Source: an uncultured SAR116 cluster alpha proteobacterium
Lineage (GTDB): Bacteria > Pseudomonadota > Alphaproteobacteria > Puniceispirillales > Marisalimonadaceae
Length of the DNA stretch: 64,000 nt
Assembly: GCA_902619615.1 (NCBI GenBank)
Contig: CACNFD010000004.1
Location: forward strand, 51,275-115,274
Reading direction: 5' to 3'
The notes beneath the pieces are model-generated. The model saw only the letters and a list, made by a program, of their open reading frames with translations, was not told where the DNA came from and made no database searches. The position numbers and the translations under genes are program-made. Positions within the stretch are counted from its first letter, which is position 1. Every line of letters begins with the position of its first letter. Positions 26,938 through 47,610 of this stretch are shown here, piece after piece.

Positions 26938-26964
26938 AATTCAATCTCTTTTTTAATCATATTT

Positions 26965-28011: not shown

Positions 28012-28038
28012 TATAGAATTCTCCCCATCTAAAAATTA

Positions 28039-33976: not shown

Positions 33977-34068
33977 TTCTCCTCCTATAGTATAAACTTA
34001 TATCAAAGATTCCTTTTGTAAAATATTTATAAAGATTTATATTTTTACATAATGGAAAGAATATAGTT

Positions 34069-34437
34069 ATGCTATCAATCGAAAATTGGATAAACAACAT
34101 AAATTCCAATAAAAGATTAATTGAAAATGGTCGTTGGTTAAATATCACTTTCACATTTGGTATTGGAGACAAAGATTATTTATTTGAGATACTTAGTGGA
34201 AATGTATTGTCTATAAATGAAAGAGAAATTTTAACACAAAGTGGAACTTTTAAAATTTATGGTCAAAGGGATAGTTGGAATAAACATTGGTTAAAAGTAC
34301 CTCCTAGAGATTATCATGATATATTTGCTATGCTTGCAAAAAAAATTATATATATAGATGGAGATCTAACCCCATTTATACAAAACCTTCAATATTTTAA
34401 AGATCTAATAGCTTCTAATAGGGATATGCATGACTGA
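34069..34437 (+). CDS. SCP2 sterol-carrier-like small protein
   Basis: 122 aa. The pattern (FTFGIGDKDYLFEI...FKIYG...DGDL...) resembles the SCP2 fold. It overlaps the next gene by 8 nt. Confidence 0.45.
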   Translation: MLSIENWINNINSNKRLIENGRWLNITFTFGIGDKDYLFEILSGNVLSINEREILTQSGTFKIYGQRDSWNKHWLKVPPRDYHDIFAMLAKKIIYIDGDLTPFIQNLQYFKDLIASNRDMHD

Positions 34438-35278
34438 TTTGAACTTTGAGGATATAATTGGCAGATATTTTAATTTAAATTTAACAAAGGACAATTATAG
34501 AATTTATGTTGAGGAAGCAGGACAGGGGACTCCTCTATTATGTCTGCATACAGCCGGGTCTGATGGAAGACAATTTCGACATATTTTAAATGATAAAAGA
34601 ATTACAAATAATTATAGAGTAATTGTTTTTGATTTGCCTTGGCATGGGAAATCCAACCCACCTGAAGGTTATGAATTGAAAGACTACAAACTAACTACAA
34701 ATCTTTACAAAGAAATAATAATGTCTTTTTGTAAGCAATATAAATTAATTGATCCAGTTATAATGGGTTGCTCGATGGGTGGAAGAGTAGTCTTACATCT
34801 TGCCCTAGAACATTGTGATTACTTTAAAGCTGTGATTGCACTTGAAGGTTCTGACAAACTTGAACCTTATTATGATCTAGATTGGCTGCACAGACCAGAT
34901 GTTCATGGTGGTTTAGTTCAAGCGGCATTTGTTTCCTCACAAATAGCACCTCAAAGTCCAAATAATTTTAAACATGAAACTTTATGGCATTATATGCAAG
35001 GAGGGCCCGGCGTTTTCAAAGGAGATCTTTATTTTTATTGGCATGACGGAGACTTTGACGACCGTTCAAATTTAATAGATACTTCAAAATGTCCGGTATA
35101 TCTTTTATCAGGTGAATATGATTGTTCTTGTACACCTGAGCGGACACTAGAAACGGCAAAAAGAATTAAGGGATCTAGAGCAACTATAATACCAGGAATA
35201 GGTCATTTTCCTATGTCAGAAAATCCAGATTTATTTAAAACTTATATCTATCCAATATTAGATGAAATTTTAAAATAA
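34430..35278 (+). CDS. alpha/beta hydrolase
   Basis: LHTAGSDGRQF, nucleophile elbow GCSMGG, and a C-terminal GHFPMSENP. Confidence 0.7.
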   Translation: MTDLNFEDIIGRYFNLNLTKDNYRIYVEEAGQGTPLLCLHTAGSDGRQFRHILNDKRITNNYRVIVFDLPWHGKSNPPEGYELKDYKLTTNLYKEIIMSFCKQYKLIDPVIMGCSMGGRVVLHLALEHCDYFKAVIALEGSDKLEPYYDLDWLHRPDVHGGLVQAAFVSSQIAPQSPNNFKHETLWHYMQGGPGVFKGDLYFYWHDGDFDDRSNLIDTSKCPVYLLSGEYDCSCTPERTLETAKRIKGSRATIIPGIGHFPMSENPDLFKTYIYPILDEILK

Positions 35279-35280
35279 AC

Positions 35281-36057
35281 TTATCCGGCCTTTTCTATAT
35301 TCCCACAAACACTTACAGCTTGACCAGAAATATTTTTCCCAAGAGGACTACACAAAAAATGAGCTTGCTCTGCTAAATCTTCGTGAGTTACAAATCTATT
35401 CAATGATGCACCAGATAAAATTTCGTCTCTCATTACTTCGAAAGATACTTTTTTAACTTTAGCCTTTGCATCAATAACTCGGTTTTGTCTCTCGCCTTCA
35501 ACAATACCTGGTAAAAGTGCATTTGCTCTTATACCCCGAGGACCTAGTTCAATTGCTAAACTCTTCACCATGCCTATAACCGCCCATTTTGTAGCTGCGT
35601 ACGGTATTCTGTAAGCAAAGCCAACTCTACCAGCAACAGAAGATACCGACAGAATTGATCCATCGTTATTCATACGTGGAACAACTAGTCTCATTGTTTC
35701 AAAATGACTAGTAATATTAACTTGTAAACACTCTTGCCAACCTCCTAGCGTTTGCTCACCAACACCAGCTGTCTCTCCTGCAATCCCAGCATTATTTACT
35801 ATAATGTCAATTTCTTTTAGGTAATCAAACCCGGCTTCAACCATAGATGAGATCAATTGGGTTTGCCTAAGGTCACATACAACTGCTTTAATATTATCAT
35901 TAACATCATTGACTTTGTTCACAGCTTCAGGATTAATATCACATACAAAGACTTTGGCTCCTGCTTTTTCAAATCTTTTAGCTATTGCATAACCAATCCC
36001 ATCAGCTCCAGCTGTTATAAGAGCTTTTTTACCTTCAAGAAGTTTTTCGTAGTTCAT
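35281..36057 (-). CDS. short-chain dehydrogenase/reductase (classical SDR)
   Basis: TAGADGIG cofactor motif, NNAG, and catalytic YAATK. Confidence 0.85.
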   Translation of the reverse strand: MNYEKLLEGKKALITAGADGIGYAIAKRFEKAGAKVFVCDINPEAVNKVNDVNDNIKAVVCDLRQTQLISSMVEAGFDYLKEIDIIVNNAGIAGETAGVGEQTLGGWQECLQVNITSHFETMRLVVPRMNNDGSILSVSSVAGRVGFAYRIPYAATKWAVIGMVKSLAIELGPRGIRANALLPGIVEGERQNRVIDAKAKVKKVSFEVMRDEILSGASLNRFVTHEDLAEQAHFLCSPLGKNISGQAVSVCGNIEKAG

Positions 36058-36067
36058 TTTTAACTTT

Positions 36068-37000
36068 CTAATTTATGTTAGTATTATTTTTTCCTTTTAG
36101 CCCTAACATTTGTCTTGCTTCATCAGGTGTAGCAATCTCCAGTGAAAGTCCTTCTAGGATTTCTCTTACCCTTTTTACTTGATCAGCATTTGTCTTAGCT
36201 AAATTACCTGGACCGTCCCATAGAGAATCTTCAAGACCAACACGCACGTGAGAACCTAAAGAAGCACCAGTTGCATTCATCCTCATTTGAGTTGCTCCAG
36301 CACCGACAACTGACCACTCATAACCTACTTCACCAAATAATTTATCAGCTGTTTTTTTCATATGTAATAAATTGTCAGCATCAGCACCAATACCACCCAT
36401 TATTCCCATAACAAATTGAATAAAGTAAGGACCTTTTAACATACCTTCTCTATGAAAATAATGAAGATTATATAAGTGACCAACATCATAACATTCAAAC
36501 TCAAATTTAGTTTCATTTTCATAACCAAATGTCATTATGTTTTCAATATCTTCAAAAGTATTTTTAAAAAGAGAATACTTACTTTTCTCAAGCATTTCTT
36601 TTTCCCAAGGGTGTTTTAACTGATTATGTCTTTTAAGCATCGGAAAAAGCCCGAAATTCATAGATCCCATATTTAATGAAGCAAGTTCTGGTTTAAAATG
36701 CATTGCAGGCTTCATTCTCTCTTCCACTGTCATTTGTGGACCACCTCCAGTTGTAATGTTTATCACTGCATCACAAGAGTTATGAATGGTTGGTAGAAAT
36801 TTTTGAAATTCTTCCGGATCTTGAGTTGGGTGGCCATCATCCTCATCTCGTGCATGCAAATGCAAGACAGCAGCACCAGCTTCATGTGCTGCTAATGAAT
36901 GTTCAATAACTTCTTCTGCCGTCACCGGTAAAAACTCTGACATTGAAGGTGTATGTATCGCTCCTGTTACTGCACAGCTGATAATTACTTTTTTAGCCAT
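36068..37000 (-). CDS. BKACE family beta-keto acid cleavage enzyme (3-keto-5-aminohexanoate cleavage enzyme family, DUF849)
   Basis: 310 aa TIM-barrel protein: ISCAVTGAIHTP, Zn site LHLHARD, and a C-terminal VGLEDSL. Confidence 0.85.
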   Translation of the reverse strand: MAKKVIISCAVTGAIHTPSMSEFLPVTAEEVIEHSLAAHEAGAAVLHLHARDEDDGHPTQDPEEFQKFLPTIHNSCDAVINITTGGGPQMTVEERMKPAMHFKPELASLNMGSMNFGLFPMLKRHNQLKHPWEKEMLEKSKYSLFKNTFEDIENIMTFGYENETKFEFECYDVGHLYNLHYFHREGMLKGPYFIQFVMGIMGGIGADADNLLHMKKTADKLFGEVGYEWSVVGAGATQMRMNATGASLGSHVRVGLEDSLWDGPGNLAKTNADQVKRVREILEGLSLEIATPDEARQMLGLKGKNNTNIN

Positions 37001-37936
37001 TTAAATATCCTCTCCTAATTCAGATTTAAGCTTTCTAATTAATGCAATCATTTTATTTCTTTTTTCTACTCTATTATCCCTTTGATCATAAGATAATCTT
37101 TTTCTTTGATCCATTTCTAATTTATTTAAATATTCTTCTGAATATTCAGGAACACTATTTTGCTCCTTAGCTAAATTTTGTATACCTTTTTTATATCGAG
37201 TAAAAGAATCTTTGATACCCTCTGGTGCATTTAAATCCATAATCTCAAAGGGACCCATGAATGCCCACCTTATACCTAATGCATGTTTTAAAGCTATATC
37301 GATATCTTCCATAGAAGCAAACCCTCCTTCGTGAAGTCTAACTGCTTCGTTAAGAAGAGCACCCTGCAATCTATTTAAAACAAAACCTTCTGCCTCTTTA
37401 TTTATAGTAATAGCTGCATATTTAGCTTTTTTGTATATTGAGACAGCTTGTTTAATAATTTTTGGGTCGGTATCCACCCCACCTGAAACTTCAACAAATG
37501 GGACAATGTGAGGAGGCAAGGCGGGATGTGCGTTGATACATCTATGTTTGTGTTTTACAAGCTCTGAAATTCTAGAAATCAGAAGATAAGATGAAGATGA
37601 TGCAATAATTGTATTTTCTGGAGTCAATTTATCTAATTGTGCAAACACTGATTTTTTTAGCTCTAAATCCTCTGACACACTTTCTTGAACTAAGATTGAA
37701 TCATTGCAAGTTTCTTCAATAGTACAGTTCAACTTTATGTTAGAACTTATCTTTTCTTCATCTGTTTCAGGGTTAATGATACGTAAATCTTGGATTAATT
37801 TATTCGCTAAATCTTTAAATTTTGTAAAACTATCTTCACTTTTGTCATAAACAAAACATTTAAAACCAGAATTAGCAAAACCTATTGCCCAGCTTGCTCC
37901 AATTAGACCAGCACCACAGATGCCAATTTTATCCAT
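37001..37936 (-). CDS. 3-hydroxyacyl-CoA dehydrogenase family protein, L-carnitine dehydrogenase-like
   Basis: I prefer ATG 37936 (MDKIGICGAGLIGASWA, Rossmann). The track's 8 extra codons (to 37960) are the U-tract and 3' stem arm of the terminator hairpin after dctM. The gene abuts the BKACE gene at 37000/37001. Confidence 0.8.
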   Translation of the reverse strand: MDKIGICGAGLIGASWAIGFANSGFKCFVYDKSEDSFTKFKDLANKLIQDLRIINPETDEEKISSNIKLNCTIEETCNDSILVQESVSEDLELKKSVFAQLDKLTPENTIIASSSSYLLISRISELVKHKHRCINAHPALPPHIVPFVEVSGGVDTDPKIIKQAVSIYKKAKYAAITINKEAEGFVLNRLQGALLNEAVRLHEGGFASMEDIDIALKHALGIRWAFMGPFEIMDLNAPEGIKDSFTRYKKGIQNLAKEQNSVPEYSEEYLNKLEMDQRKRLSYDQRDNRVEKRNKMIALIRKLKSELGEDI

Positions 37937-37946
37937 ATTAAATCCC

Positions 37947-37977
37947 AAAAAAAACCGCATCTTTCAGATGCGGTTTT
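37947..37977 (-). terminator. rho-independent terminator/attenuator between dctM and the dehydrogenase gene
   Basis: Perfect inverted repeat AAAACCGCATC-TTTCA-GATGCGGTTTT. On the minus strand the GC-containing stem is followed by a T8 run. Confidence 0.6.
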
Positions 37978-37987
37978 CATTAACTTG

Positions 37988-39379
37988 CTAAATTAGCCGC
38001 GGAAGCCATAATGCCATTTCTGGTTGATAAATAACAAATCCTAGACCAATCAATTGTATAATAACAAAGGGTACCACTCCTCTATATATGCTTAAAGTAG
38101 CAACTTCTGGAGGGGCAACCCCTTTCAAATAAAACAAGGCGAAACCAAATGGTGGTGTAAGAAATGAGGTTTGGAGATTTATAGCCATTAAAACTAAAAA
38201 CCAAACCAATGTTTCTTTACGCCCATCAAGACCAGTTAATTGGGATACATGATCTCCAAAATCTAATAGAACAACCAATGGAGCAAAAATTGGTAAAATG
38301 ATAAGAGTTATTTCAACCCAATCTAAAAAGAATCCAAGTAAAAATGTCATTCCCATTAATAAAAACAATAAACCCCAAGATCCAAGACCTGCTTTTTCTA
38401 TTAATTCCTCAACAATATAATCGCCACCAAGTGATCTGAATACATAGGCAAAACAAGTTGCACTTAAAATAATCATAAACACCATTGCAATCGTAAGACC
38501 TGAAGAGTGTAAAACACTTCTCAACATTGGGAGTGTAAACTTATTACCTATTATAGCTAGAAAAGTTGCACCAAATGCACCTACAGCTCCAGCCTCACTA
38601 GGTGTAGCCCAACCAAGTAAAATTGAACCTTTTATGAGTGTAATCAAAGCAACAGGTGGCAAAAATGCTTTTAAAACCATTTGTGGCAATCTACCTTTTT
38701 CATATTGAAGCTCACCTTCATTTACAGCAGGGGCAACATTTCTATCAATAGAACACCACACAAAAATAAATATTAAATACATTAAGGCTAGTGTTAATCC
38801 TGGAATAACTGCACCCATGAACAGATTTCCAACAGAAACTTGCATAATATCAGCCATAATAATCAACATAATACTTGGAGGAATTAAAATACCTAATGTT
38901 CCAGAGGCAGCAATTACTCCTGTTGAAAGCGCATGACTATATTTATTTCTTAACATTGTTGGTAATGCTAATGCTGTCATCATTGTAACCGACGCTCCAA
39001 TGATACCTGTCATAGCAGCTAACACAGTACCCATGACAGTCACTGACATCGCAAGACCACCGGGAACTTTTCTTAGTAAAATTTGGGTTGTTCTTAATAA
39101 ATCATTAGCAATACCACTTCTTTCCATCATAGTACCCATAAATACAAAGCTAGGTATGGCAACTAATATTAAGTTTTCAGCAGAAAATCCCCACATTCTA
39201 GGAACAAAATTAAAAAATTCTGCAATTTTAAACACTCCAAATAGATAACCAATAAATCCATAAGTTATTGCTACTCCACCAAGTATAAACCCAACAGGAT
39301 ATCCTATGAATAAAAGTATCCCCATCGTCAGAAACATAAAAATTGGCAGATATTCTATGATAATATCAACAAAATCCAT
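37988..39379 (-). CDS. TRAP transporter large permease subunit (DctM family)
   Basis: 463 aa polytopic membrane protein with typical DctM composition and length. Confidence 0.88.
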   Translation of the reverse strand: MDFVDIIIEYLPIFMFLTMGILLFIGYPVGFILGGVAITYGFIGYLFGVFKIAEFFNFVPRMWGFSAENLILVAIPSFVFMGTMMERSGIANDLLRTTQILLRKVPGGLAMSVTVMGTVLAAMTGIIGASVTMMTALALPTMLRNKYSHALSTGVIAASGTLGILIPPSIMLIIMADIMQVSVGNLFMGAVIPGLTLALMYLIFIFVWCSIDRNVAPAVNEGELQYEKGRLPQMVLKAFLPPVALITLIKGSILLGWATPSEAGAVGAFGATFLAIIGNKFTLPMLRSVLHSSGLTIAMVFMIILSATCFAYVFRSLGGDYIVEELIEKAGLGSWGLLFLLMGMTFLLGFFLDWVEITLIILPIFAPLVVLLDFGDHVSQLTGLDGRKETLVWFLVLMAINLQTSFLTPPFGFALFYLKGVAPPEVATLSIYRGVVPFVIIQLIGLGFVIYQPEMALWLPRLI

Positions 39380-39387
39380 AACTACAC

Positions 39388-39864
39388 CTATGCTTTCTCA
39401 TTTTTAATATTATAATTTTCAAATTCTCCAGTATATCTCTGCCAAGCAACTATCCTTGAAATTCTCCATCCATATTTAAGTGAGAGAAGAAACAAACAAA
39501 CAAAAATAGTCATTGTTAATAAAGAAGAATTTTTTGCAAGAGCATCATAGAAACATAACCCTACTATCACTGATGGAGCTAAAGCAATTATGTAAGATGA
39601 AATTAATTCATATTTACGTATAACGCTAAATATCGAATAGATTACTGAAACTGAAGCAAATAACCAAAAATAGTAAATCAAATTATTACTTTCTAAAATT
39701 GATAGAATAGCAGCCAGTCCAATTATTCCATAAATCGTTCCAACAAAAACACCATAAGCAGCCAATTCATATTGTGATTGGGCTAAAGTTAAGTTCTTAG
39801 CCTCAATTAAATAAGGAGTTTTTTGTTTATCAAATATATAACCAGGAACTTTTGAAAACCACAT
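39388..39864 (-). CDS. four-TM membrane protein of unknown function encoded inside the TRAP operon
   Basis: 158 aa with four hydrophobic segments. It lies 8 nt upstream of dctM and 39 nt downstream of dctQ. No family recognised. Confidence 0.5.
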   Translation of the reverse strand: MWFSKVPGYIFDKQKTPYLIEAKNLTLAQSQYELAAYGVFVGTIYGIIGLAAILSILESNNLIYYFWLFASVSVIYSIFSVIRKYELISSYIIALAPSVIVGLCFYDALAKNSSLLTMTIFVCLFLLSLKYGWRISRIVAWQRYTGEFENYNIKNEKA

Positions 39865-39903
39865 TGCTTATCTCATAGATATTTTAACAGAGGAATTTTG
39901 ATC

Positions 39904-40515
39904 TTATTTAGTTTTATCATAATCAAGTACCATAAGATCAAGTTTCTTTTTATTATCGCCCCATATAACTGCAATTAATTGTATCATAACTGACAAACCG
40001 CCAAGAAAAAGGAAGAAATATCCAATAGGCAGAAATGTTTTAATAATCCATCTGTTACTTAAACCAACTAGCGAGGCGGATACCTCATTAATCACATAAG
40101 AATCTACCATGTAAATCCAAGAAAAATAAACACATATAAGTGTAAATGGAAGCATGAAGAAAATATTACCATAAAATTCAACTTTTGCCTTAGATCGAAA
40201 GTTAAAGTTTTCTCTAAGAAAATCGACTCTTACATGCCTGTTATGAGTGTAACCATAACCTAAAACCAGACAAAAAACGACTGTGTGAAGGTGCCATTCC
40301 ATTTCTTGCATTAATGTTGATTCAAAAAATGAACCAAAATTTTGGACCATAAATATTTGTATCCAAACTAATTTTCTAGCAACAACATCCCACATTGTTA
40401 TTATAACTAGGGGAACTAAAAGCCAAGTACTGGCTCTACCAACTCTATTTACAAGTTCACGAAGCTTTTCACTTAATGAAATGAGACCTTCCATGTTTTG
40501 TTCTGTAAGTGCCAT
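39904..40515 (-). CDS. TRAP transporter small permease subunit (DctQ family)
   Basis: 203 aa with 4 TM helices, located between dctP and dctM. Confidence 0.8.
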   Translation of the reverse strand: MALTEQNMEGLISLSEKLRELVNRVGRASTWLLVPLVIITMWDVVARKLVWIQIFMVQNFGSFFESTLMQEMEWHLHTVVFCLVLGYGYTHNRHVRVDFLRENFNFRSKAKVEFYGNIFFMLPFTLICVYFSWIYMVDSYVINEVSASLVGLSNRWIIKTFLPIGYFFLFLGGLSVMIQLIAVIWGDNKKKLDLMVLDYDKTK

Positions 40516-40589
40516 TATTCTCCCCCAGAATACCTAATCTCTATTAAATTTAATTAGCTTATTAAATACAAAATTTCAATTTATTTATC

Positions 40590-40630
40590 AAAAAAAAAGT
40601 ACACTTGTTAGATAAAATAACAAGTGCACT
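40590..40630 (-). terminator. rho-independent terminator/attenuator after dctP
   Basis: The minus-strand RNA AGUGCACUUGUUA-UUUUAUC-UAACAAGUGUACU forms a 13-bp stem followed by U9. The one non-Watson-Crick position is G.U on the minus strand but A.C on the plus strand, which supports minus-strand function. Confidence 0.65.
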
Positions 40631-40647
40631 TATATGTTTATAAAGAA

Positions 40648-41706
40648 TTAGTACTTTTTAGCTTTTAGATAAGCTCTTGAAGACCAAATACTGTAGTCCT
40701 CTCTAAACTTGTTATAGCTTGCAGTAATTTCTTTGAAAAGAGGGTCAGAAGCTGACTTCTCCTCAACAACAGCATCCCAAGCTTTCTTAAACTTGGAGAT
40801 TTCTGAGTCAGGCCATGTTACGAATGTAACACCTTTTTTCTCGAGTTCTGCCATAGCAGGAACTTGCTTAGCATCGGATCTAACTAATGCCCACCACATT
40901 GTGTCACGACATGCTGTATTGATAACAGCTTGTTGTGTCTTAGTTAAACCACCCCATCCTTTGGTGCTCATCAATAGCTCACCAATTGATGTTTGCTGGT
41001 GCCAACCTGGGAAATAGTTAAATTTAGCTAACTGATAGAAACCATAACTTAAGTCGTGTGTAGGCATAGAAAATTCTGTTGCATCAATAACACCTTTTTC
41101 TAGAGCTGGGTAAATATCTCCACCAGCAAGTAACTGTGTTGACACACCTAATTTACTCATAACCATAGCACCAAGACCGAAGAAACGCATTTTCATGCCT
41201 TTCAACTCTTCAACATTGTTGATTTTCTTTCTAAACCAACCTGATGTCTCAGGAGCGTGAGTTAAACAGTTAAGAGCTTTAAGGCCATACTCACCATAAA
41301 TTCTGTCTTTTAACTGCTGACCTCCGCCATATTCCATCCAACCATGGTACTCACTAGCACCTGGACCAAAAGGAACAGCTGTGAAGTAAGAAACTGCAGG
41401 GATTTTACCAGCATGGTAACCTGGTGTTGTATAACCTGCATCAACTGATCCATTCTTAACAGCATCCCAAACTTCTAATGAAGGTACAAGAGCGTTTGGC
41501 TCGTGAAATCTCAACTGGACGTCGCCACCTGAAATTGACTTAACTTTGTTAGAAAAATAAACAGCAGCTTCACCATTAATAGCAACTTGGCTACCCCAAG
41601 TACTTTGCATTTTCCAACGTAGCTTATCAGCATTTGCTGAAACAGCTACTAAACTGGTTGCAGCTAAAGCTACAGCGCCTACGAATAGGCCAGATTTGAA
41701 TTTCAT
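40648..41706 (-). CDS. TRAP transporter solute-binding protein (DctP family, mannitol/chloroaromatic COG4663-like subgroup)
   Basis: GGGAGGA SD precedes ATG 41706. Signal peptide MKFKSGLFVGAVALAATSLVAVSANA, then HAGKIPAVSYFTAVPFG and WFRKKIN. Confidence 0.85.
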   Translation of the reverse strand: MKFKSGLFVGAVALAATSLVAVSANADKLRWKMQSTWGSQVAINGEAAVYFSNKVKSISGGDVQLRFHEPNALVPSLEVWDAVKNGSVDAGYTTPGYHAGKIPAVSYFTAVPFGPGASEYHGWMEYGGGQQLKDRIYGEYGLKALNCLTHAPETSGWFRKKINNVEELKGMKMRFFGLGAMVMSKLGVSTQLLAGGDIYPALEKGVIDATEFSMPTHDLSYGFYQLAKFNYFPGWHQQTSIGELLMSTKGWGGLTKTQQAVINTACRDTMWWALVRSDAKQVPAMAELEKKGVTFVTWPDSEISKFKKAWDAVVEEKSASDPLFKEITASYNKFREDYSIWSSRAYLKAKKY

Positions 41707-41761
41707 GAAATTCCTCCCTAGTATTATAAAAAAGGCTATTACCAAGAAATTTTAGAATTAC

Positions 41762-41797
41762 TTTATAATTGCCCGATTAAAAGAAACAATTGTTTCT
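41762..41797 (-). promoter_or_regulatory. candidate dctP promoter with overlapping palindromic operator
   Basis: Perfect 16-bp palindrome AGAAACAATTGTTTCT at 41782..41797. On the minus strand its right half supplies a TTGTTT -35-like hexamer, 16 nt upstream of TATAAA (41767..41762). Confidence 0.3.
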
Positions 41798-42076
41798 CAA
41801 CTGATACATATCTTTCTTAATTATTTCAATAAAGGCAAGTAAAAACTTATAAAATTTCAAATATTTTTTTTCTTGACTTGCATTTTTTTTATTTTGCCTA
41901 TTTTATAATCTATGATTTTTAAATTATTAAATTCGCTTAATTTTTGAACGCATTATTTACTATCAAACAGTAAAAGTCATCAAAACAAATTTGAAGCGGA
42001 ACATCCCTAAAAACATACGTAAATCAAAGAGATTTACTCTATAAATTTGAATTCTTGAAAAATTCGGTTAAACGAA

Positions 42077-42886
42077 TTAATCGTCAAAGTGTCCTGATGA
42101 TGCAAAATAACCACCGTGAGTAGTTACTAGTGGATCAGTCGAATCAATAAACCCATCTTTTTTTTCAATTATACTTCTAAATTTTTCCGCGTTATCTTTT
42201 GGGTTATAACCTATATGTTTGGCATATTTGTTATCGATTAACACCGAATCATTATTTGATACTCCAAAAATTACAGAGTGTTGTACATTAGTACTATTTA
42301 TACACGCAATAATAATACTCTTCAAATCATCATAACTTAACCATGTTGAGAGCATTCTATGATCTTTAGGCTCAGGAACACACGAGTAAATTCTTACTGA
42401 TACAGTTTCTAGTTTATATTTGTCCCAATAATACTGAGCTAAGGACTCTCCAAAAACCTTTGACAAACCATAATTGCTATCTGGTCTAGGCATTGCTTTA
42501 CTATCTATAACTTCAGATCTTGGATAAAAACCAACTGTATGAACTGAACTTGCCCAAATAACTCTTTTAATTTTATTTTTTCTGCATGCTTCATATAGAT
42601 TATACATGCCTATAATGTTTGAATTTAAAACATTATCCCAAGAACCTTCTATACTTTGACCACCCATATGAACTATGCAGTCTATATCTTTTGTTAATTT
42701 TAATATTGATTCTTTTGAAGCAAGATCAGCAATTTCAACTTCCTCGTTATGAAATTTTTTTTCTAAATCCACCTTGTCAGAAATTTTAAGCAAATCACAT
42801 TCTTTAGATAATGTTTCCCTTAATTGATTGCCTAAGGCTCCAGCAGCTCCAGTTAGTAAAATATTATTAAATTTATGTTTAGACAT
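42077..42886 (-). CDS. uronate dehydrogenase-like NAD-dependent dehydrogenase (extended SDR)
   Basis: 269 aa with LLTGAAGALG and YGLSK. RIYSCVPEPKDHRMLSTWLSYDD closely matches my recollection of the Agrobacterium/Pseudomonas Udh motif RIGSCxPEPxxxRMLSTWxSxDD. Confidence 0.7.
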   Translation of the reverse strand: MSKHKFNNILLTGAAGALGNQLRETLSKECDLLKISDKVDLEKKFHNEEVEIADLASKESILKLTKDIDCIVHMGGQSIEGSWDNVLNSNIIGMYNLYEACRKNKIKRVIWASSVHTVGFYPRSEVIDSKAMPRPDSNYGLSKVFGESLAQYYWDKYKLETVSVRIYSCVPEPKDHRMLSTWLSYDDLKSIIIACINSTNVQHSVIFGVSNNDSVLIDNKYAKHIGYNPKDNAEKFRSIIEKKDGFIDSTDPLVTTHGGYFASSGHFDD

Positions 42887-42896
42887 TTCTAACTCC

Positions 42897-43778
42897 CTAT
42901 CTTTTTTGACTTTTTATATATTCTCTCCAAAAAGTGAATAAACCTGCTATAATTACTATTGCGGAACCTATAATTGTTTCATTTTCTAATTTTTCATTAA
43001 AAACTAACACACCTATAATTGAAACAAAAACCAATTGTAGAAATGTAAATGGCTGTAGTATAGAAGCCTCACTGTATTTGAAAGCATTAATCATAAGAAA
43101 ATGTCCACTAGCACCCAAAATACAAATTGCTAATAAAGACAACCAATGAGAATTCTCAATTGAGGTGTAAAAAAAAGGACCAATTGCGCCTAATATGACA
43201 AAACCAGTAATTCCAGTATAAAAAAGACTTGTATCAGGACTATCTTCACTTGATACATATCTGGTAAGAATCTGATAAACAGCAAATGCAAACGCACAAC
43301 CTAGAGCTATTAGAGATAATGGATCAAAAACTTTTGATCCAGGTCTAAGCATGATGAGAATACCTATAAAACCAACTAAAATTGCAGACCACCTTCTCCA
43401 ACCAACTTTTTCTTTTAAAATAAATACTGAAAGAGCTGCTACCATTAATGGACAGCTGGCAAAAATTGCATGTGTTTCTATAAGTCCAATTTTTAAAAAA
43501 AGATAGTGAGCAAAACACATCTCTACAGCAAGAATAATACCTCTTAAAATTTGGATGAATTTAAACTTACTTTTTGAAACAAGAATAACACTTTTGTTTC
43601 CTGTACTGTTAATCGATATTACAAATAGAAATAAGAAGAGATATCGAAACATATTAATAGCTATTACATTATAATAATCTGTTAGGTATCTTGTAACCCC
43701 ATCCATTACAGACAAACATGATACAGCAGCAATTATAAACAATATGCCCTTTGCATTTGAAGAAATATTTAGAGGCAT
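42897..43778 (-). CDS. EamA/DMT superfamily transporter
   Basis: 293 aa, 10 TM, two EamA-like halves. Confidence 0.8.
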   Translation of the reverse strand: MPLNISSNAKGILFIIAAVSCLSVMDGVTRYLTDYYNVIAINMFRYLFLFLFVISINSTGNKSVILVSKSKFKFIQILRGIILAVEMCFAHYLFLKIGLIETHAIFASCPLMVAALSVFILKEKVGWRRWSAILVGFIGILIMLRPGSKVFDPLSLIALGCAFAFAVYQILTRYVSSEDSPDTSLFYTGITGFVILGAIGPFFYTSIENSHWLSLLAICILGASGHFLMINAFKYSEASILQPFTFLQLVFVSIIGVLVFNEKLENETIIGSAIVIIAGLFTFWREYIKSQKR

Positions 43779-43801
43779 AATTTATTTTTTCTTTCTAGGG
43801 T

Positions 43802-44686
43802 TCAATAAAAATCGATTGTCCTTTTAATCCCATATTCAAGAGAAGTATACTTAAATTTTTTAAATATATTAGAAGGCTCATTTCCTCGTATTTCATCTAC
43901 TACACTTAATGGATTGCCATTGATTCCTATATCCGCCAGCGGTATGTTTTTTTTAATTAAATTTATAAAATCACTAACATCAGCTGTTATTCCGTTTAAA
44001 TTAAAAGTTAATGCACCTGAAGGAAGATGAGCTATTGACATTTCAACTAAATTTGCAACATCTTCAACATAAACAAAACCTGCCTTGCCTGAAAAGTTTA
44101 CAGTATAACTATCTCCTTGTTTTGCCGCCTTACAGGCTAAGGTTACCCCTGCAGTTCCCCCAACTTCTCTTCCTGGCCCATAAATTACATATGGCCTAAT
44201 TCCAACACTTGAAATAACAGCTTCATTAAAATACGCCCTTGCAACCCCTTCAACGGCTAACTTATATGCACCATAATGGGTTTCTGGTAATGGGTAATAA
44301 TGATCTTTTTTCCCAAAAACACCTGCACTGCTTGCATAAACTAAAAACTTAATGTTATTTTTTTTCAAAGCTTCAAAAACATTAATTGAGCCGAGGAGAT
44401 TTACTTTAGCGCCTAAAATAGGATTTGAACTACAGTCTGGGGTCATCAAACCAGCCAAATTTATAACATGGTCCATATTATTTATTGCTTCTTGGACCTG
44501 ATCATAATTTGTTATATCACCATTAATAAATTTAATTTTTTTAATATCCTCACTAATAACATAGCTGAGCAATTCTTTATGGATTTTTAAGTCAAAAATT
44601 GAAACGTTATAACCTTTTTTCAAAAAGGCTCTTACTATCCAGCTTCCTAAAAAGCCGCAACCTCCAAAAATTATAATTTTTTTCAT
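43802..44686 (-). CDS. NAD-dependent epimerase/dehydratase family protein
   Basis: IIIFGGCGFLGSWI Rossmann motif and catalytic YGAYK. Confidence 0.8.
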   Translation of the reverse strand: MKKIIIFGGCGFLGSWIVRAFLKKGYNVSIFDLKIHKELLSYVISEDIKKIKFINGDITNYDQVQEAINNMDHVINLAGLMTPDCSSNPILGAKVNLLGSINVFEALKKNNIKFLVYASSAGVFGKKDHYYPLPETHYGAYKLAVEGVARAYFNEAVISSVGIRPYVIYGPGREVGGTAGVTLACKAAKQGDSYTVNFSGKAGFVYVEDVANLVEMSIAHLPSGALTFNLNGITADVSDFINLIKKNIPLADIGINGNPLSVVDEIRGNEPSNIFKKFKYTSLEYGIKRTIDFY

Positions 44687-45661
44687 TTAACTTCTCTTTT
44701 TCAATACCATTGATTTAGCAGCTTTTCCTATTTCTTTTATACATTTAGCAGCTTTAGGAAAATGTAAAGAATTCGACAAAAAACCATGGATCTGACCGGG
44801 ATATAATTTATAAGTCACTTTATTACCAAAGCTTTTTAATCTATTTGTATAAGCCATTCCTTCATCCAGCAAAGGATCCAACCCAGCCGCAAATATAAAT
44901 GTTTCAGGGAGATTATATAGATCCACGGCAAAAAGTGGTGATGCCTCCCAGTTAACTGCATCATTACTTGAATTAAGATAATGTTTAACGAAATATTCCA
45001 TAGTATCAAAAGTTAAAGTCATACCTTCTAGAAAAATGTCCATGGATCTCATTGTTAGCGTTAGATCAACACAAGGATATACCAATATCTGACCTCTTAT
45101 CGGAATTACCTTTTTATCCCTTGAGTTAATAGCCAAAACAGTTGCTAAATTACCGCCAGCGCTATCCCCACATACAAAAATATTTTCAAGATCAATAAAA
45201 AATTCATTTTCAAAATTTACAAGGCTATTTAAAACATCCTTTACCTCTTCTACTGCATAAGGGAACTTATGTTCTGGGGACAAACTATAATCCACCGCCA
45301 CAACAATCATTTGAGACTCTAAGCAAATTGATCTGCAGGTAAAGTCATGAGTATCCAAATCCCCCATGACGAAACCACCTCCATGAAAAAATACTATAAT
45401 TGGAATTTTAGTTTTTTTATTAAAATAATTTGGAAAATAAAATCTTAATTTAACATCTTTGTTAAATCGGTTTTTTATTTTTAAATTTTCTGAATGATAA
45501 ATTTTTGGAGGTGTTAAATTATCTTCCCTTAACTGTCTCAAACGTTCAGTTCTTAATTCTACTGGATTTAATAAGTGATGTAATTTTGAATTACTTTTAA
45601 TACGATTTTTTAAAAAAATATCAGTTTCTTTATCAATTATCATTGATTTATGCATTCCCAT
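44687..45661 (-). CDS. alpha/beta hydrolase fold-3 (hormone-sensitive-lipase family) esterase
   Basis: HGGGF oxyanion motif, GDSAGG nucleophile elbow, and a C-terminal GQIHGF. Confidence 0.85.
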   Translation of the reverse strand: MGMHKSMIIDKETDIFLKNRIKSNSKLHHLLNPVELRTERLRQLREDNLTPPKIYHSENLKIKNRFNKDVKLRFYFPNYFNKKTKIPIIVFFHGGGFVMGDLDTHDFTCRSICLESQMIVVAVDYSLSPEHKFPYAVEEVKDVLNSLVNFENEFFIDLENIFVCGDSAGGNLATVLAINSRDKKVIPIRGQILVYPCVDLTLTMRSMDIFLEGMTLTFDTMEYFVKHYLNSSNDAVNWEASPLFAVDLYNLPETFIFAAGLDPLLDEGMAYTNRLKSFGNKVTYKLYPGQIHGFLSNSLHFPKAAKCIKEIGKAAKSMVLKKRS

Positions 45662-45749
45662 ACTGATTCATTTTGTTCTTTTAGCTTTATATTTTTAATA
45701 AAGTTTATTTATAATAAAAAATCTAGTGAATTTTTTTAAGGAGATAACC

Positions 45750-46634
45750 ATGACTACATTAAAAGGAATTATTGCACCTTTTACAACTCCATTTAAGGCA
45801 AATGGAGAAATTGATCTTACTTTAATAAAGCCACAAGTAGATTGGTTAATTGAAAATGGTGTTCATGGTTTAGCTGCTGGAGGTAGCACAGGTGAAGGTC
45901 ATGCTTTAAGCAGAGATGAGTATTTATCCCTAATGACAGAAACTGCTTCATCTTTAAATAGCAGGGTACCTTTAGTTGCTGGTATTATTGCTAATTCAAC
46001 ATCTGAAGTAATTGAAAGAGGTAAGTCAGTAAAGTCTCTTAACGTTGAAGCTCTTCAAATAACACCACCAAGTTATTTATTTAGGCCTGACGATGATGCA
46101 ATGGTAAGACATTTTAGTGAGATACATGAAGAATGCCAGATACCAATATTAATTTATAATGTTGTACCTTGGTGCTATTTATCACCTGATTTACTATTAA
46201 GAATTATGGATGAAGTTCCAGGAGTTTTAGGAGTAAAACAAAGCGCTGGTGATATGAAACTTTTTGCTGACCTCATTAGAAGAGCAAAGTCTAAAAATAT
46301 GATTTTTAGTGCTGTTGATGCTCTTCTTTACTTATCATACAAATTGGGAGCACCGGGATCAATTGCAGCAATTTTAACTGCCGCCCCAGGTCCTTCTGTC
46401 AAATTATGGGATGCTGTTATTGAACAAGATTGGGAAACTGCAAAGGATCTTCATGAAAAACTAATGCCTTTATGGGATGCAATTGGCTTAGATAATATGC
46501 CATCTCTCTGTAAATATGCTCAAAGTTTACAAGGTCTTAAAAGTGGTTTTGCCAGAAGACCAACTTCTCCTGCAACCGATAATCAGAAAGAAAAAGTGAG
46601 GGAAGCCCTAATTAATCTAAACCTTATAAAATAA
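45750..46634 (+). CDS. dihydrodipicolinate synthase/N-acetylneuraminate lyase family class I aldolase/dehydratase
   Basis: AGGAG precedes ATG 45750. GGSTGEG, IYNVVPW and the Schiff-base region LGVKQSAGD are present. Confidence 0.8.
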   Translation: MTTLKGIIAPFTTPFKANGEIDLTLIKPQVDWLIENGVHGLAAGGSTGEGHALSRDEYLSLMTETASSLNSRVPLVAGIIANSTSEVIERGKSVKSLNVEALQITPPSYLFRPDDDAMVRHFSEIHEECQIPILIYNVVPWCYLSPDLLLRIMDEVPGVLGVKQSAGDMKLFADLIRRAKSKNMIFSAVDALLYLSYKLGAPGSIAAILTAAPGPSVKLWDAVIEQDWETAKDLHEKLMPLWDAIGLDNMPSLCKYAQSLQGLKSGFARRPTSPATDNQKEKVREALINLNLIK

Positions 46635-46650
46635 GATTAAGAGGATCAAA

Positions 46651-47610
46651 ATGTATCTTAATTATCCAAAGCCGACAGAATCAATAAAAGTTGCAAAAAA
46701 TGACTTAAAAAAATGGGGTTATTGTTTACTTAAAAACGCTATTCCACAAGATCTTAATAACAGGGCTATGAAAAGATTAATTGAACAGGCTAATGCAGAA
46801 AAAGAATTAAATCTGGCATACGAGGATGGCAGTGAAAAAAAGAAATGGGGTGAATTCCATAAAAATACTGATGCCCTTGGGGTCAACCAACGAGTATGGA
46901 TGTTGCCTAATAAAGGCAAAGTATTTTTAGATATTTTAGCAAAACACAACTATGTAGATTGCGTAAAAGAAATTGTTGGAGATGAATTCCTAGTTTCAAG
47001 TTTTGGAGCAAATATTGCTAAGCCTGGAGGGGTTGCAATGGATCTTCATACTGATCAATGGTGGTTTCCAGACCCAGTAAATAGAAATGATGATTTTTTG
47101 CCTCCAGGATCTATTAAAAGAAACAAATTTAATATCAAAATCAATGAAAATATTAATAACAATAACGAACTTATTTCAAGGCCAGCTGTAACAAACGTTT
47201 TAATAATGCTAAATGGAATGAGTAAAGAAAATGGGGGTACGCGTATTGTCCCAGGATCTCATTTATTTGGACGTCATCCAGATAAAGTTTTAGATAAAGA
47301 TATAGAAGTTATATCTGCTGAAGGCCCCCCTGGTTGTGCTATTGTTACGGATGGTAGGGTATGGCACGGAACAGGTGCAAATATTACAAAGGATAATAGG
47401 CTTGCATTATTAATAACTTTTTGTGGCCCACAATTTAGACCTCAAGAAAATTTTACCTTAGGTATAAAAAAAGATGTTTTTTCAAATTTAAATGACTATC
47501 AAAAAGAATTACTAGGGTTTAAAGTTTGGAATGGATATGGAAGAATTGGAAATCCTACTGATACATTTCTTGATATAGAAAACCATGAAATTGGTGAATT
47601 AAAAATTTAA
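46651..47610 (+). CDS. phytanoyl-CoA dioxygenase (PhyH) family Fe(II)/2-oxoglutarate oxygenase
   Basis: HxD in DLHTDQWW, distal His in RVWHGTGAN, and RIVPGSH. Confidence 0.8.
   Translation: MYLNYPKPTESIKVAKNDLKKWGYCLLKNAIPQDLNNRAMKRLIEQANAEKELNLAYEDGSEKKKWGEFHKNTDALGVNQRVWMLPNKGKVFLDILAKHNYVDCVKEIVGDEFLVSSFGANIAKPGGVAMDLHTDQWWFPDPVNRNDDFLPPGSIKRNKFNIKINENINNNNELISRPAVTNVLIMLNGMSKENGGTRIVPGSHLFGRHPDKVLDKDIEVISAEGPPGCAIVTDGRVWHGTGANITKDNRLALLITFCGPQFRPQENFTLGIKKDVFSNLNDYQKELLGFKVWNGYGRIGNPTDTFLDIENHEIGELKI

Follow-up and report, generated by a model that had tools for sequence, protein, structure and literature searches.

The minus strand of the analysed window, a 64-kb stretch of DNA from a SAR116-cluster alphaproteobacterium, carries what is rather probably an operon-like catabolic module, which would take up a beta-hydroxy carboxylate via a TRAP transporter, oxidise it at C3 and split the product with a BKACE, an enzyme that cleaves beta-keto acids. 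Seven ORFs were confirmed on this strand, all of which could be assigned to families with strong scores, except for an ORF of 158 aa (m158; Table 1). The order is dctP, hairpin, dctQ, m158, dctM, hairpin, HADH, BKACE and SDR. HADH and BKACE meet at positions 37001/37000 with a gap of 0 nt, the stop of BKACE and the start of SDR are separated by 10 nt (36058-36067), and the motifs IGICGAGLIGASWA and LHLHARD were found in the translated ORFs. Gene order, both spacings and the motifs had been described in an earlier sequence-only reading of this DNA and are all present. Its gene positions also held, apart from two start codons. The start of HADH was reassigned to the ATG at 37936 (311 aa), because the ATG at 37960 assumed before sits inside the hairpin between dctM and HADH; homologues of HADH and a separate gene call on an identical contig also have 311 aa. 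For dctP, the TTG at 41745 was replaced by the ATG at 41706, which is located 6 nt downstream of GGAGG.

Table 1 Features of the TRAP-HADH-BKACE-SDR locus (positions in the window)
Feature	Position	Strand	Characteristics
dctP, TRAP solute-binding protein	40648..41706	-	352 aa with signal peptide; PF03480 4e-40
Hairpin and T-run directly 3' of dctP	40588..40631	-	14-bp stem, -16.8 kcal/mol, z = -5.3
dctQ, TRAP small membrane subunit	39904..40515	-	203 aa; PF04290 3.5e-10
m158, 158-aa membrane protein, candidate fourth TRAP component	39388..39864	-	four predicted helices; no family match
dctM, TRAP large membrane subunit	37988..39379	-	463 aa; PF06808 2e-66
Terminator-like hairpin and T-run between dctM and HADH	37947..37978	-	-18.2 kcal/mol, z = -4.5
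HADH-family NAD-dependent dehydrogenase, lambda-crystallin/L-gulonate 3-dehydrogenase-like	37001..37936	-	311 aa; PF02737 and PF00725
BKACE, Zn-dependent beta-keto acid cleavage enzyme	36068..37000	-	310 aa; PF05853 5e-104
Classical SDR, NAD-type	35281..36057	-	258 aa; PF00106 and PF13561

According to the proposed mechanism, a TakP-related TRAP system composed of DctP, DctQ, DctM and m158 would import a small monocarboxylate bearing a 3-hydroxyl group, probably a C5-C6 compound with further oxygen functions. Our best guess is a C5-C6 oxygenated 3-hydroxy acid, with a 2-deoxy-aldonate (e.g. 2-deoxyribonate), 3-hydroxy-5-oxohexanoate and 3,5-dihydroxyhexanoate as candidates. In the cytoplasm, the SDR and/or the lambda-crystallin-type HADH would use NAD+ to turn the 3-hydroxyl into a 3-keto group. 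We infer both this choice of substrate and a stereochemical split between the two enzymes: by family analogy the SDR would be D-specific, as in 3-hydroxybutyrate dehydrogenase and deoxyribonate dehydrogenase, and the HADH L-specific on free acids. The Zn-dependent BKACE would then convert the beta-keto acid and acetyl-CoA to acetoacetate and an acyl-CoA two carbons shorter, so that the carbon would reach CoA metabolism without ATP cost. Import of a beta-hydroxy carboxylate, NAD-dependent oxidation and BKACE cleavage had been put forward in general form before; this scheme fits every family assignment and agrees with the recurrence of TRAP, SDR, HADH and BKACE genes in unrelated taxa.

The cleavage enzyme passes the NCBI equivalog model NF053538 (3,5-dioxohexanoate/beta-ketohexanoate type) with 512 bits at a cut-off of 430, although this model probably owes its name to in vitro screening. 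Comparison with the PDB yielded 417 bits for 3E49 and 406 bits for 8RIO/8RIP. The protein groups with 3E49 and Paracoccus BKACE15 in a clade of 310-aa enzymes, and BKACE15 is the nearest characterised relative. BKACE15 has been tested on C5-C6 beta-keto acids of neutral or oxygenated type; it acts on 3,5-dioxohexanoate and 5-hydroxy-3-oxohexanoate and accepts beta-ketopentanoate and beta-ketohexanoate. The motifs with H47 and H49 (LHLHARD) and E257 (GLED), which we take to be the Zn ligands, align identically with those of 8RIO/3E49, and E169 and R253 correspond to E171 and R254 of BKACE15. Both the Zn motif and the catalytic residues are conserved.

The best NCBIfam model for the HADH-family protein is NF004783/PRK06129, with a score of 303.7 bits that is below the cut-off of 347. 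Among solved structures, lambda-crystallin/L-gulonate 3-dehydrogenase (3F3S/3ADO) scored 179 bits, while the values for other HADHs were 97 or lower, and close homologues are named 'L-gulonate 3-dehydrogenase' by JGI. L-gulonate 3-dehydrogenase works on a free acid; by analogy, the protein probably oxidises a free L-3-hydroxy acid. The SDR passed no cut-off of any NCBIfam SDR model. It is 43-47% identical to BKACE-adjacent SDRs of Burkholderia sp. SFA1, Sagittula, Ponticoccus, Thalassospira, Sedimentitalea and Marinobacterium. In the PDB, 5UNL matches it best (220 bits); next come the domain of malonyl-CoA reductase that reduces malonate semialdehyde, and 3-hydroxybutyrate dehydrogenase. Behind beta-2 the SDR has the NAD-type Asp, and at Tyr-3 a basic residue (Arg), as in 3-hydroxybutyrate dehydrogenase and the malonyl-CoA reductase domain.

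In the PDB comparison, DctP falls into the clade of TakP-like monocarboxylate binding proteins, with 7UG8 ('ketoacid-binding protein'), 4PET, 4YZZ/4YIC, TakP (2HZK) and 5CM6 as best matches. The carboxylate-binding Arg is conserved (R174, corresponding to R177 of TakP), as are Y97 and E211. In contrast, the TakP pair Q156/E240 is swapped to E153/Q237, and the pocket is more polar and roomier than that of TakP (Y99G, V245G, P243S, T153H, V97T). DctQ is 40-53% identical to its counterparts from related four-gene TRAP operons, and DctM scored 270.5 bits with TIGR00786 (cut-off 268.45). TakP binds 2-oxo or 2-hydroxy acids rather than 3-hydroxy acids, and none of the other solved DctP relatives is known to bind anything but 2-oxo or 2-hydroxy acids, which speaks against the proposed mechanism.

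The protein m158 has no match in Pfam or NCBIfam. Its family is small, with 56 representatives at 50% identity and 464 clusters at 90%, and features the invariant residues Y9, T16, P17, Q29, E33, Y131 and R134. The AF2 model consists of four long helices, for which no fold match was obtained in the PDB, and a profile comparison with DctQ revealed no similarity. Of 69 metagenome loci, 65 have a TRAP gene immediately upstream in the same orientation. Because this unnamed family nearly always follows TRAP genes, m158 may be a fourth transporter component that is specific to this TRAP clade.

The whole string from dctP to SDR, including m158, is kept in about 27 SAR116 loci, across which the identity drops to 53-60% for HADH and to 37-42% for m158. 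One of these loci features a second dctP paralog directly after the SDR gene. Members of the same TRAP clade were also observed in the orders SDR-BKACE-P-M-Q-m158 (a metagenome contig) and BKACE-M-Q-m158 (an Ectothiorhodospiraceae MAG). Clusters of TRAP, GntR, SDR, HADH and BKACE genes occur in Sagittula, Sedimentitalea and Marinobacterium, and in Thalassospira the cluster combines the same enzymes with a Liv-type ABC transporter and GntR, with a TRAP system nearby. In 38 BKACE loci outside SAR116, the orthologous SDR was found 16 times, an HADH 10 times and TRAP genes 7 times. In many bacteria, orthologous SDR-BKACE pairs adjoin GntR regulators and transporters of the MFS, TRAP or Liv type. 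Beside the cluster, the window has neither a glycerate kinase nor a CoA-transferase nor a gene for acetoacetate activation, which counts against the proposed mechanism. Its neighbour genes are sugar-acid-like and comprise two extended-SDR sugar dehydrogenase-like genes, an esterase/lactonase candidate and a DapA-family aldolase/dehydratase. Genes for an SCP2-fold protein and an alpha/beta hydrolase are arranged tail-to-tail with the SDR gene.

A terminator hairpin after dctM had been noticed before and proved to be real by its folding energy: none of 200 shuffles folded equally well as the stem at 37950-37978 with its T-run, which a simple terminator scan had overlooked. This hairpin lies between the transporter and the enzyme genes, which speaks against a common module. 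A further strong hairpin follows dctP (stem 40597-40631). Across SAR116, both are conserved in place, the former with compensatory stem changes, the latter with differing stem sequences. The distance from the T-run to the ATG of HADH is only about 15-25 nt in these lineages, which leaves no room for a promoter. Transcription would read through the hairpins, which probably grade expression along a single transcript, with the binding protein in excess of the membrane subunits and these in excess of the enzymes.

Two of the alternatives are specific cases of the preferred mechanism. Catabolism of a 2-deoxy-aldonate of the 2-deoxy-D-ribonate type is possible, albeit at a low probability. The SDR would yield the 2-deoxy-3-keto-aldonate, from which BKACE would form acetoacetate and glyceryl-CoA or a similar product; the C3 epimer or a related acid would be left to HADH. 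There is genetic and biochemical precedent for this gene set: Paraburkholderia bryophila combines SDR and BKACE with a transporter and HADH, and Pseudomonas has gntR-SDR-BKACE-MFS. The proteins of the window are 45% (SDR) and 62% (BKACE) identical to those of the GntR-SDR-BKACE-MFS cluster of Burkholderia sp. SFA1, and the sugar-acid-like neighbours and the more polar DctP pocket point in the same direction. However, the surroundings revealed neither a glycerate kinase nor a gene for handling glyceryl-CoA.

The second case, which we consider unlikely, is the lower half of phloroglucinol/triacetate degradation, in which oxidation of imported (S)-3-hydroxy-5-oxohexanoate or 3,5-dihydroxyhexanoate would yield 3,5-dioxohexanoate, and cleavage of the latter acetoacetate and acetoacetyl-CoA. 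The threshold and name of NF053538 and the activities of BKACE15 on 3,5-dioxohexanoate and 5-hydroxy-3-oxohexanoate argue for it, and a dihydroxy acid would suit two dehydrogenases. The proven pathway of Clostridium combines the HADH-family free-acid enzyme TfD, the BKACE TAL and the SDR PGR (PMC10470551). The TRAP genes of Sagittula adjoin a degradative HMG-CoA reductase, an enzyme acting on the 3,5-dihydroxy acid mevalonate, and in Ponticoccus a cyclase-family gene is located at most 5 kb from the HADH-BKACE pair. However, no DPGC/cyclase homologue was found in the window (best tblastn E = 0.12) or in the clusters of Sedimentitalea and Marinobacterium. The TR(S/N) NADPH motif of PGR is missing from the SDR, which is NAD-type, and the marker residue Trp16 of CsTAL is Ile15 in BKACE. 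Free 3-hydroxy-5-oxohexanoate is not known to have a marine source, which also counts against this route.

The TRAP system could also be functionally independent, e.g. a general importer of 2-oxo/2-hydroxy monocarboxylates that is adjacent in SAR116 by inheritance alone, with the substrate of the HADH-BKACE-SDR trio entering or arising by another way. A general monocarboxylate importer is suggested by the fact that most four-gene TRAP operons of the clade in metagenomes stand alone among unrelated neighbour genes; the conserved hairpin between dctM and HADH and the pyruvate-like ligands with a cation in solved relatives are in line with it. This is nevertheless improbable, as the clade and BKACE are neighbours in three or more lineages whose gene orders differ, and the same trio is elsewhere accompanied by other TRAP types. 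The second dctP copy flanking the enzymes in one SAR116 genome, the promoterless interval before HADH and the cation-site and pocket residues unlike those of TakP also argue against independence.

Salvage of plain short or medium 3-hydroxyalkanoates (C5-C6 monomers from polyhydroxyalkanoates or lipids) is quite improbable. The SDR would act on the R isomer, HADH on the S isomer, and BKACE would release acetoacetate and propionyl- or butyryl-CoA. The acceptance of beta-ketopentanoate and beta-ketohexanoate by BKACE15, the similarity of the SDR to 3-hydroxybutyrate dehydrogenase, the preference of TakP-type pockets for aliphatic chains and the SCP2-fold and alpha/beta hydrolase genes are consistent with it. 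On the other hand, the pocket substitutions of DctP go polar, an acyl-CoA synthetase together with ordinary beta-oxidation would process such acids, and the neighbours are sugar-acid-like, not lipid-like.

L-carnitine catabolism, the lead of the sequence-only reading, is rejected as highly improbable. HADH would be carnitine dehydrogenase, the TRAP system would import carnitine and BKACE would split dehydrocarnitine to acetoacetate and betainyl-CoA; HADH and BKACE do form the core of the known pathway (PMC9321204). Two carnitine dehydrogenase models match HADH (E about 1e-40), but the scores of 134-143 bits are far below the cut-offs (414 and 592). The equivalog that BKACE passes is another one, and assays of its clade used keto acids that are neutral or oxygenated. 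A betainyl-CoA thioesterase, not evident in that reading either, is absent from the locus, and so are BBOX and a betaine-type ABC/BCCT transporter. DctP belongs to the TakP monocarboxylate clade, and the orthologous SDR-BKACE pairs adjoin GntR and MFS, TRAP or Liv-type transporter genes, not betaine genes. Judged by what the reading had itself named as refuting, its generic version survives and its carnitine version fails. The relevance for SAR11-type cells was misplaced, given the SAR116 host.

The canonical marine carnitine island of SAR11 comprises a betaine ABC transporter, CDH, BKACE, a thioesterase and BBOX (PMC12421898), of which the transporter, the thioesterase and BBOX are all absent from the SAR116 locus. 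Use of 2-deoxyribonate genetically requires SDR and BKACE, to which Paraburkholderia adds HADH and a transporter (bioRxiv 10.1101/205583). The genes of that pathway show the same layout as the SDR-BKACE pairs beside GntR regulators and transporters.

The seven minus-strand reading frames proposed earlier from the sequence were all recovered, with strong family scores wherever a family matches (see the table below). They encode the TRAP components DctP, DctQ and DctM, a 158-aa membrane protein, an enzyme for the cleavage of beta-keto acids (BKACE) and two putative 3-hydroxy acid dehydrogenases (HADH and SDR). Two starts were corrected. The new HADH start codon, an ATG, yields a protein of 311 aa and agrees with homologues and with an independent gene call; the ATG listed before lies inside a hairpin. 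The new dctP start is an ATG with GGAGG in front of it. The HADH and BKACE genes abut and the SDR gene follows 10 nt past the BKACE gene, as described in the sequence-only reading. The hairpin 3' of dctM was likewise borne out, with a folding energy of -18.2 kcal/mol (z = -4.5), and none of 200 shuffled sequences folded as well. It consists of AAAACCGCATC-TGAAA-GATGCGGTTTT, followed by further T.

Features of the gene string and of its surroundings (positions in the window)
Feature	Position	Strand	Match or remark
122-aa ORF, SCP2 fold	34069-34437	+	pLDDT 80.7; TM 0.78 to 2CX7 (predicted structure)
Alpha/beta hydrolase	34430-35278	+	start overlapped 8 nt by 122-aa ORF; ends 2 nt from SDR stop
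SDR	35281-36057	-	PF00106, PF13561
BKACE	36068-37000	-	PF05853, 5e-104
HADH	37001-37960 as listed, true start 37936	-	PF02737, PF00725
dctM-HADH hairpin and T-run	37947-37978	-	intrinsic-terminator-like
DctM	37988-39379	-	PF06808, 2e-66
158-aa ORF	39388-39864	-	no family match
DctQ	39904-40515	-	PF04290, 3.5e-10
Second hairpin and T-run	40588-40631	-	3' of dctP
DctP	40648-41745 as listed, start moved to 41706	-	PF03480, 4e-40
Extended SDR (Azf/uronate-dehydrogenase-like), DMT/EamA transporter, second extended SDR (erythronate-dehydrogenase-like), HSL-family esterase	within 42077-47610	-	directly upstream of TRAP
DapA-family aldolase/dehydratase, PhyH-type dioxygenase	within 42077-47610	opposite strand	divergent

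Across SAR116 lineages (homologous loci L003-L038), the two hairpins occur at conserved positions. Their stem sequences vary with compensatory changes, reading CCGCATC/GATGCGG in some lineages and ATACCGAAC/GTTCGGTAT in others. The distance from the T-run to the HADH start codon is only 15-25 nt in the SAR116 loci. We infer that the hairpins act as attenuators or stability elements inside one transcript and do not mark an operon boundary, and the compensatory stem changes suggest that graded expression or mRNA stability is under selection. A scan of positions 34000-46000 against Rfam revealed no riboswitch or leader, the sole match being a sub-threshold chance one on the terminator. A perfect palindrome upstream of dctP (GAAACAATTGTTTC) was considered as an operator and rejected; it occurs in none of the 169 fetched loci and is at chance level when mismatches are allowed.

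At 99% protein identity, the closest genomic matches are SAR116-cluster MAGs and single-cell genomes, among them that of 'Candidatus Levibacter sp. Uisw_134_01', which is complete and carries the gene string (locus L015). Because the best matches belong to this cluster, the window does not stem from a SAR11-type cell. The order dctP-dctQ-158-aa gene-dctM-HADH-BKACE-SDR was observed in about 27 SAR116 loci, i.e. those with enough flanking DNA, and it persists although identity falls to 53-60% for HADH and to 37-42% for the 158-aa protein. Genes of the module also turn up in many marine metagenome clusters, some of which have hundreds of member sequences. The first search for HADH homologues yielded nothing but SAR116 metagenome proteins that are near-identical and bear generic names. 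In the literature, no paper connecting BKACE with SAR116 was found; the single paper connecting BKACE with TRAP was set aside, as it concerns a different SAR11 island.

On the downstream side, the pair of SCP2-fold and hydrolase genes borders the cluster in every SAR116 locus and seems to be confined to SAR116 (216 homologues). At E <= 1e-10, no solved structure is related to the hydrolase, and it is not similar to the hydrolase of the Thalassospira cluster. Upstream of the TRAP genes, the genes between 42077 and 47610, of which the HSL-family esterase is LipP1-like (278 bits), have the look of a sugar-acid island, which may supply the module. Farther away, beyond a transketolase/E1-like gene, minus-strand positions 25559-28911 (corresponding to 10282-13125 of the homologous locus L161) hold genes for a PEP-mutase/isocitrate-lyase family protein, a Zn alcohol dehydrogenase and the alpha and beta subunits of a nitrile hydratase, which have no obvious tie to the module.

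The P, Q and M components of the transporter are encoded together, with matches to PF03480, PF04290 and PF06808. DctP belongs to the monocarboxylate clade of TakP, an alpha-keto acid TRAP binding protein, and scores 174-206 bits with the 'ketoacid-binding protein' 7UG8, of which no mention was found in the literature, and with 4PET, 4YZZ, 2HZK (TakP) and 5CM6. Mapping of the TakP ligand site (PMC1839085) onto DctP showed that the carboxylate-binding arginine R174 as well as Y97 and E211 are kept (TakP Arg177, Tyr100 and Glu214). The cation site of TakP is formed by Gln156, Glu214 and Glu240 (PMC1839085). In DctP, two of these ligands are exchanged (Gln156 to Glu153 and Glu240 to Gln237), which means that the TakP set is not reproduced. 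This Gln/Glu exchange is common to the whole DctP clade, including the proteins of Sagittula and Sedimentitalea, and was present in no solved structure found in this analysis. Compared to TakP, several residues of the pocket are smaller or more polar (Y99G, V245G, P243S, T153H, V97T).

The 158-aa protein is a member of a small, unnamed family: a set of 1.84 billion proteins contains 56 representatives of it, and clustering at 90% identity gives 464 clusters. Named members are all 'hypothetical', except for one JGI 'dipeptide/tripeptide permease'. Four long helices are predicted, and residues Y9, T16, P17, Q29, E33, Y131 and R134 are invariant in the family. Searches gave no Pfam match, no similarity to DctQ profiles and no fold match in the PDB. 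The family loci, which include L081-L160, L168 and L169, tie the gene to TRAP genes: of the 69 metagenome loci that extend at least 250 nt upstream, 65 have dctQ (58) or dctP (7) directly upstream on the same strand. The protein may be a fourth component of one TRAP clade.

That the transporter is functionally independent of the enzyme genes is conceivable, given the terminator-like hairpin between dctM and HADH and the fact that the clade's four-gene TRAP operons are mostly surrounded by unrelated genes, the neighbours of the stand-alone operons having no common theme. We regard such independence as unlikely. The same TRAP clade adjoins BKACE in other lineages with differing gene orders, namely SDR-BKACE-dctP-dctM-dctQ-158-aa gene on a metagenome contig and BKACE-dctM-dctQ-158-aa gene in an Ectothiorhodospiraceae MAG. 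In Marinobacterium, Sagittula and Thalassospira, the SDR-HADH-BKACE trio occurs with TRAP systems of other types, and a second dctP is present beyond the enzymes in one SAR116 genome. In that genome (locus L018, approximately 12037-13100), the second dctP lies right after the SDR gene, such that two dctP genes bracket the enzymes; this paralog (76% identical) has changes in the pocket (H150T, G242N).

With 347.9 bits, BKACE clearly exceeds the cut-off of PF05853 (24.8), residues 4-301 covering model positions 1-274 of 274. It also passes the curated cut-off of 430 for NF053538, the NCBIfam equivalog '3,5-dioxohexanoate:acetyl-CoA acetone transferase', with 512 bits (residues 2-308, model positions 4-309 of 310). 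By model score, it is a member of this type and is predicted to cleave 3,5-dioxohexanoate with acetyl-CoA, the relative that has been assayed being BKACE15. The models for the lysine-fermentation BKACE (Kce) and for the 3-oxoadipate BKACE were tried and did not fit. Among solved structures, 3E49 (417 bits) and the Paracoccus denitrificans enzyme BKACE15 (8RIO/8RIP, 406 bits) come closest, and Kce scores 129 bits. H47 and H49 (LHLHARD) and E257 (GLED) are present, and both motifs, the putative Zn site, align identically with BKACE15. E169 and R253 are the conserved equivalents of the catalytic residues E171 and R254 of BKACE15. Among the described BKACE groups, G7 is inactive and has no catalytic residues, and G5 is the carnitine group (NetSyn and ASMC papers). 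The position of Glu14 in Kce is occupied by Ile15 ('TGAIHTPS'), as in 3E49 and BKACE15. Glu14 of Kce binds the amino group, and the triacetate lyase of Clostridium (CsTAL) has Trp16 at the same position (PMC10470551).

The best model for HADH is NF004783/PRK06129, although its score of 303.7 bits is under the cut-off of 347. The best solved relatives are the lambda-crystallins 3F3S and 3ADO (179 bits, full-length), compared to 97 bits or less for other HADHs. From its sequence, HADH thus resembles PRK06129 and lambda-crystallin proteins and is not a certified family member. Like lambda-crystallin/L-gulonate 3-dehydrogenase, it has the motifs NAHP and NRLQ and the Arg of 'G(I/M)R(W/Y)AF', which presumably have catalytic and carboxylate-binding roles. 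L-gulonate 3-dehydrogenase (EC 1.1.1.45) works on free L-3-hydroxy acids. If the product of HADH is the substrate of BKACE, its natural substrate would have to be free of a 2-hydroxyl group. As a further difference, the window HADH is bacterial.

No NCBIfam model was passed by SDR. An Asp follows strand beta-2 ('VCDINPE'), a position at which this residue points to NAD preference. At the position three residues before the catalytic Tyr, SDR has Arg, the same as the malonate-semialdehyde-reducing domain of malonyl-CoA reductase, whereas 3-hydroxybutyrate dehydrogenase has Lys; both of these enzymes take free beta-oxygenated carboxylates. Considering the two dehydrogenases together, SDR may, by analogy with the known behaviour of the two families, be D-specific and HADH L-specific, which would make them stereo-complementary. 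SDR is 43-47% identical to an SDR adjoining BKACE in six organisms, i.e. Burkholderia sp. SFA1 (GntR-SDR-BKACE-MFS), Sagittula stellata, Ponticoccus, Thalassospira, Sedimentitalea and Marinobacterium. Across 38 BKACE loci outside SAR116, an orthologous SDR next to BKACE was found in 16, HADH in 10 and TRAP genes in 7. The BKACE of Palleronia stands alone amid polysaccharide genes, and the match on a Paracoccus denitrificans plasmid has no annotation in PLSDB.

The generic mechanism proposed in the sequence-only reading, a module for a beta-hydroxy acid, holds, while its candidate substrate carnitine fails. As in L-carnitine catabolism, an HADH-family dehydrogenase gene translationally abuts a BKACE gene, whereas the SDR conserved with BKACE is an addition compared to the carnitine module. 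HADH scores far below the cut-offs of the carnitine 3-dehydrogenase models (NF005716, 142.8 against 592; NF005471, 134.2 against 414), and BKACE, which clusters with 3E49 and BKACE15, falls to another equivalog. As noted earlier, a betainyl-CoA thioesterase is not evident: the genes examined between 28960 and 51870 include none. The same region has no betaine or carnitine transporter, the transporter being a TRAP of the TakP clade. The marine SAR11 carnitine island carries a betaine ABC transporter, a thioesterase and BBOX (PMC12421898), all of which are missing here. Taken together, L-carnitine catabolism is highly improbable.

The full phloroglucinol pathway is excluded by the missing cyclase-family gene, the NAD-type SDR and the missing marker residue of CsTAL. 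In Clostridium scatologenes, the anaerobic pathway comprises PGR, DPGC, TfD and TAL (PMC10470551). The adjacency of three enzyme families (SDR, HADH-type free-acid dehydrogenase and BKACE) is shared with this organism, and the end reaction, in which triacetate and acetyl-CoA yield acetoacetate and acetoacetyl-CoA, may be shared as well. However, the SDR of C. scatologenes is the NADPH-dependent PGR, whereas the window SDR has no TR(S/N) NADPH motif of phloroglucinol reductases. The window BKACE is of the 310-aa clade, with Ile in place of Trp16. Neither Pfam scans of the cluster and its relatives nor a tblastn search of the entire window with a cyclase-family protein (best E = 0.12) revealed a ring-opening enzyme of the cyclase family (dihydrophloroglucinol cyclohydrolase, DPGC), and a carboxylate importer takes the place of the phenol MFS.

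Three candidate substrates remain. A 2-deoxy-aldonate is supported by a genetic precedent and by the sugar-acid flavour of the neighbourhood. A 3-hydroxy-5-oxo- or 3,5-dihydroxyhexanoate is in keeping with what the BKACE clade accepts in vitro and with there being two dehydrogenases; in addition, a degradative HMG-CoA reductase adjoins the TRAP genes in Sagittula. Plain C5-C6 3-hydroxyalkanoates are the third candidate. The mevalonate-type enzyme next to a TRAP hints at 3,5-dihydroxy acid substrates in roseobacters. On the Sagittula stellata E-37 plasmid (locus L163, 249-9654), the order is degradative HMG-CoA reductase-SDR-dctMQP, divergent from GntR-SDR-HADH-BKACE-SDR.

The most far-reaching interpretation, which we consider possible rather than probable, is a dedicated route for a marine dissolved organic compound that has so far gone unrecognised as a substrate of bacteria, for example a 2-deoxy-aldonate or a 3,5-oxygenated hexanoate. 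Uptake would proceed through an undescribed four-component TRAP clade with the 158-aa protein as obligatory fourth subunit and a rearranged cation site in the binding protein. Two stereo-complementary dehydrogenases would then funnel the substrate to BKACE, which would make CoA esters without ATP.

SAR116 is an abundant heterotrophic clade of the surface ocean. If the acid consumed were identified, the few carbon sources known for SAR116 would be joined by one more defined compound, and a physiological role could be assigned to the BKACE15/3E49 clade, our knowledge of which so far stems mostly from in vitro screens and the deoxyribonate pathway. The TRAP-associated fourth gene is a modest additional novelty. 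Should the 158-aa protein be a genuine subunit, the view of TRAP transporters as three-component systems would have to be extended for this clade.

Among known systems, TakP (SmoM) of Rhodobacter sphaeroides (2HZK/2HZL; PMC1839085) has the same long type of binding protein (188 bits), which forms a helix-swapped dimer in TakP (PMC1839085). In contrast to TakP, the window clade has a fourth conserved membrane gene with dctQM. BKACE15 (PDB 8RIO/8RIP/9HNF) is of the same 310-aa clade, with an identical N-terminal motif 'VTGAIHTPSMS' and roughly 60% identity to the window BKACE (59.5%, tblastn, P. denitrificans homologue). The contexts differ, since the window BKACE is found with a TRAP and two dehydrogenases, whereas BKACE15, the physiological role of which is stated as unknown, has a context of aromatic-compound degradation (PMC11961710).

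A precedent is the oxidative 2-deoxy-D-ribonate route (Price et al., bioRxiv 10.1101/205583; Pseudomonas simiae, Paraburkholderia bryophila, Burkholderia phytofirmans). Genetic and biochemical evidence has established the layout gntR-SDR-BKACE-transporter for this route, in which 2-deoxy-D-ribonate is converted via 2-deoxy-3-keto-ribonate to acetoacetate and glyceryl-CoA. The cluster of P. bryophila also holds an HADH-family gene, the mutants of which have a milder phenotype (bioRxiv 10.1101/205583). In both cases, an SDR (the 3-dehydrogenase of the deoxyribonate route) adjoins BKACE, and a dedicated transporter is encoded with them, in the window the upstream TRAP. The chemistry, predicted for the window, leads from a 3-hydroxy acid via a 3-keto acid to acetoacetate and an acyl-CoA. 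Since this layout and chemistry were shown genetically and biochemically, the gene set has a validated precedent. The window SDR and BKACE are 45% and 62% identical, respectively, to those of the look-alike GntR-SDR-BKACE-MFS cluster of Burkholderia sp. SFA1, which are not the validated genes (PS417_07245/07250, BPHYT_RS04775/04760). The window differs in having a TRAP instead of an MFS transporter; a GntR or AraC regulator is missing, the operon includes no lactonase, and there is no glycerate kinase gene close by.
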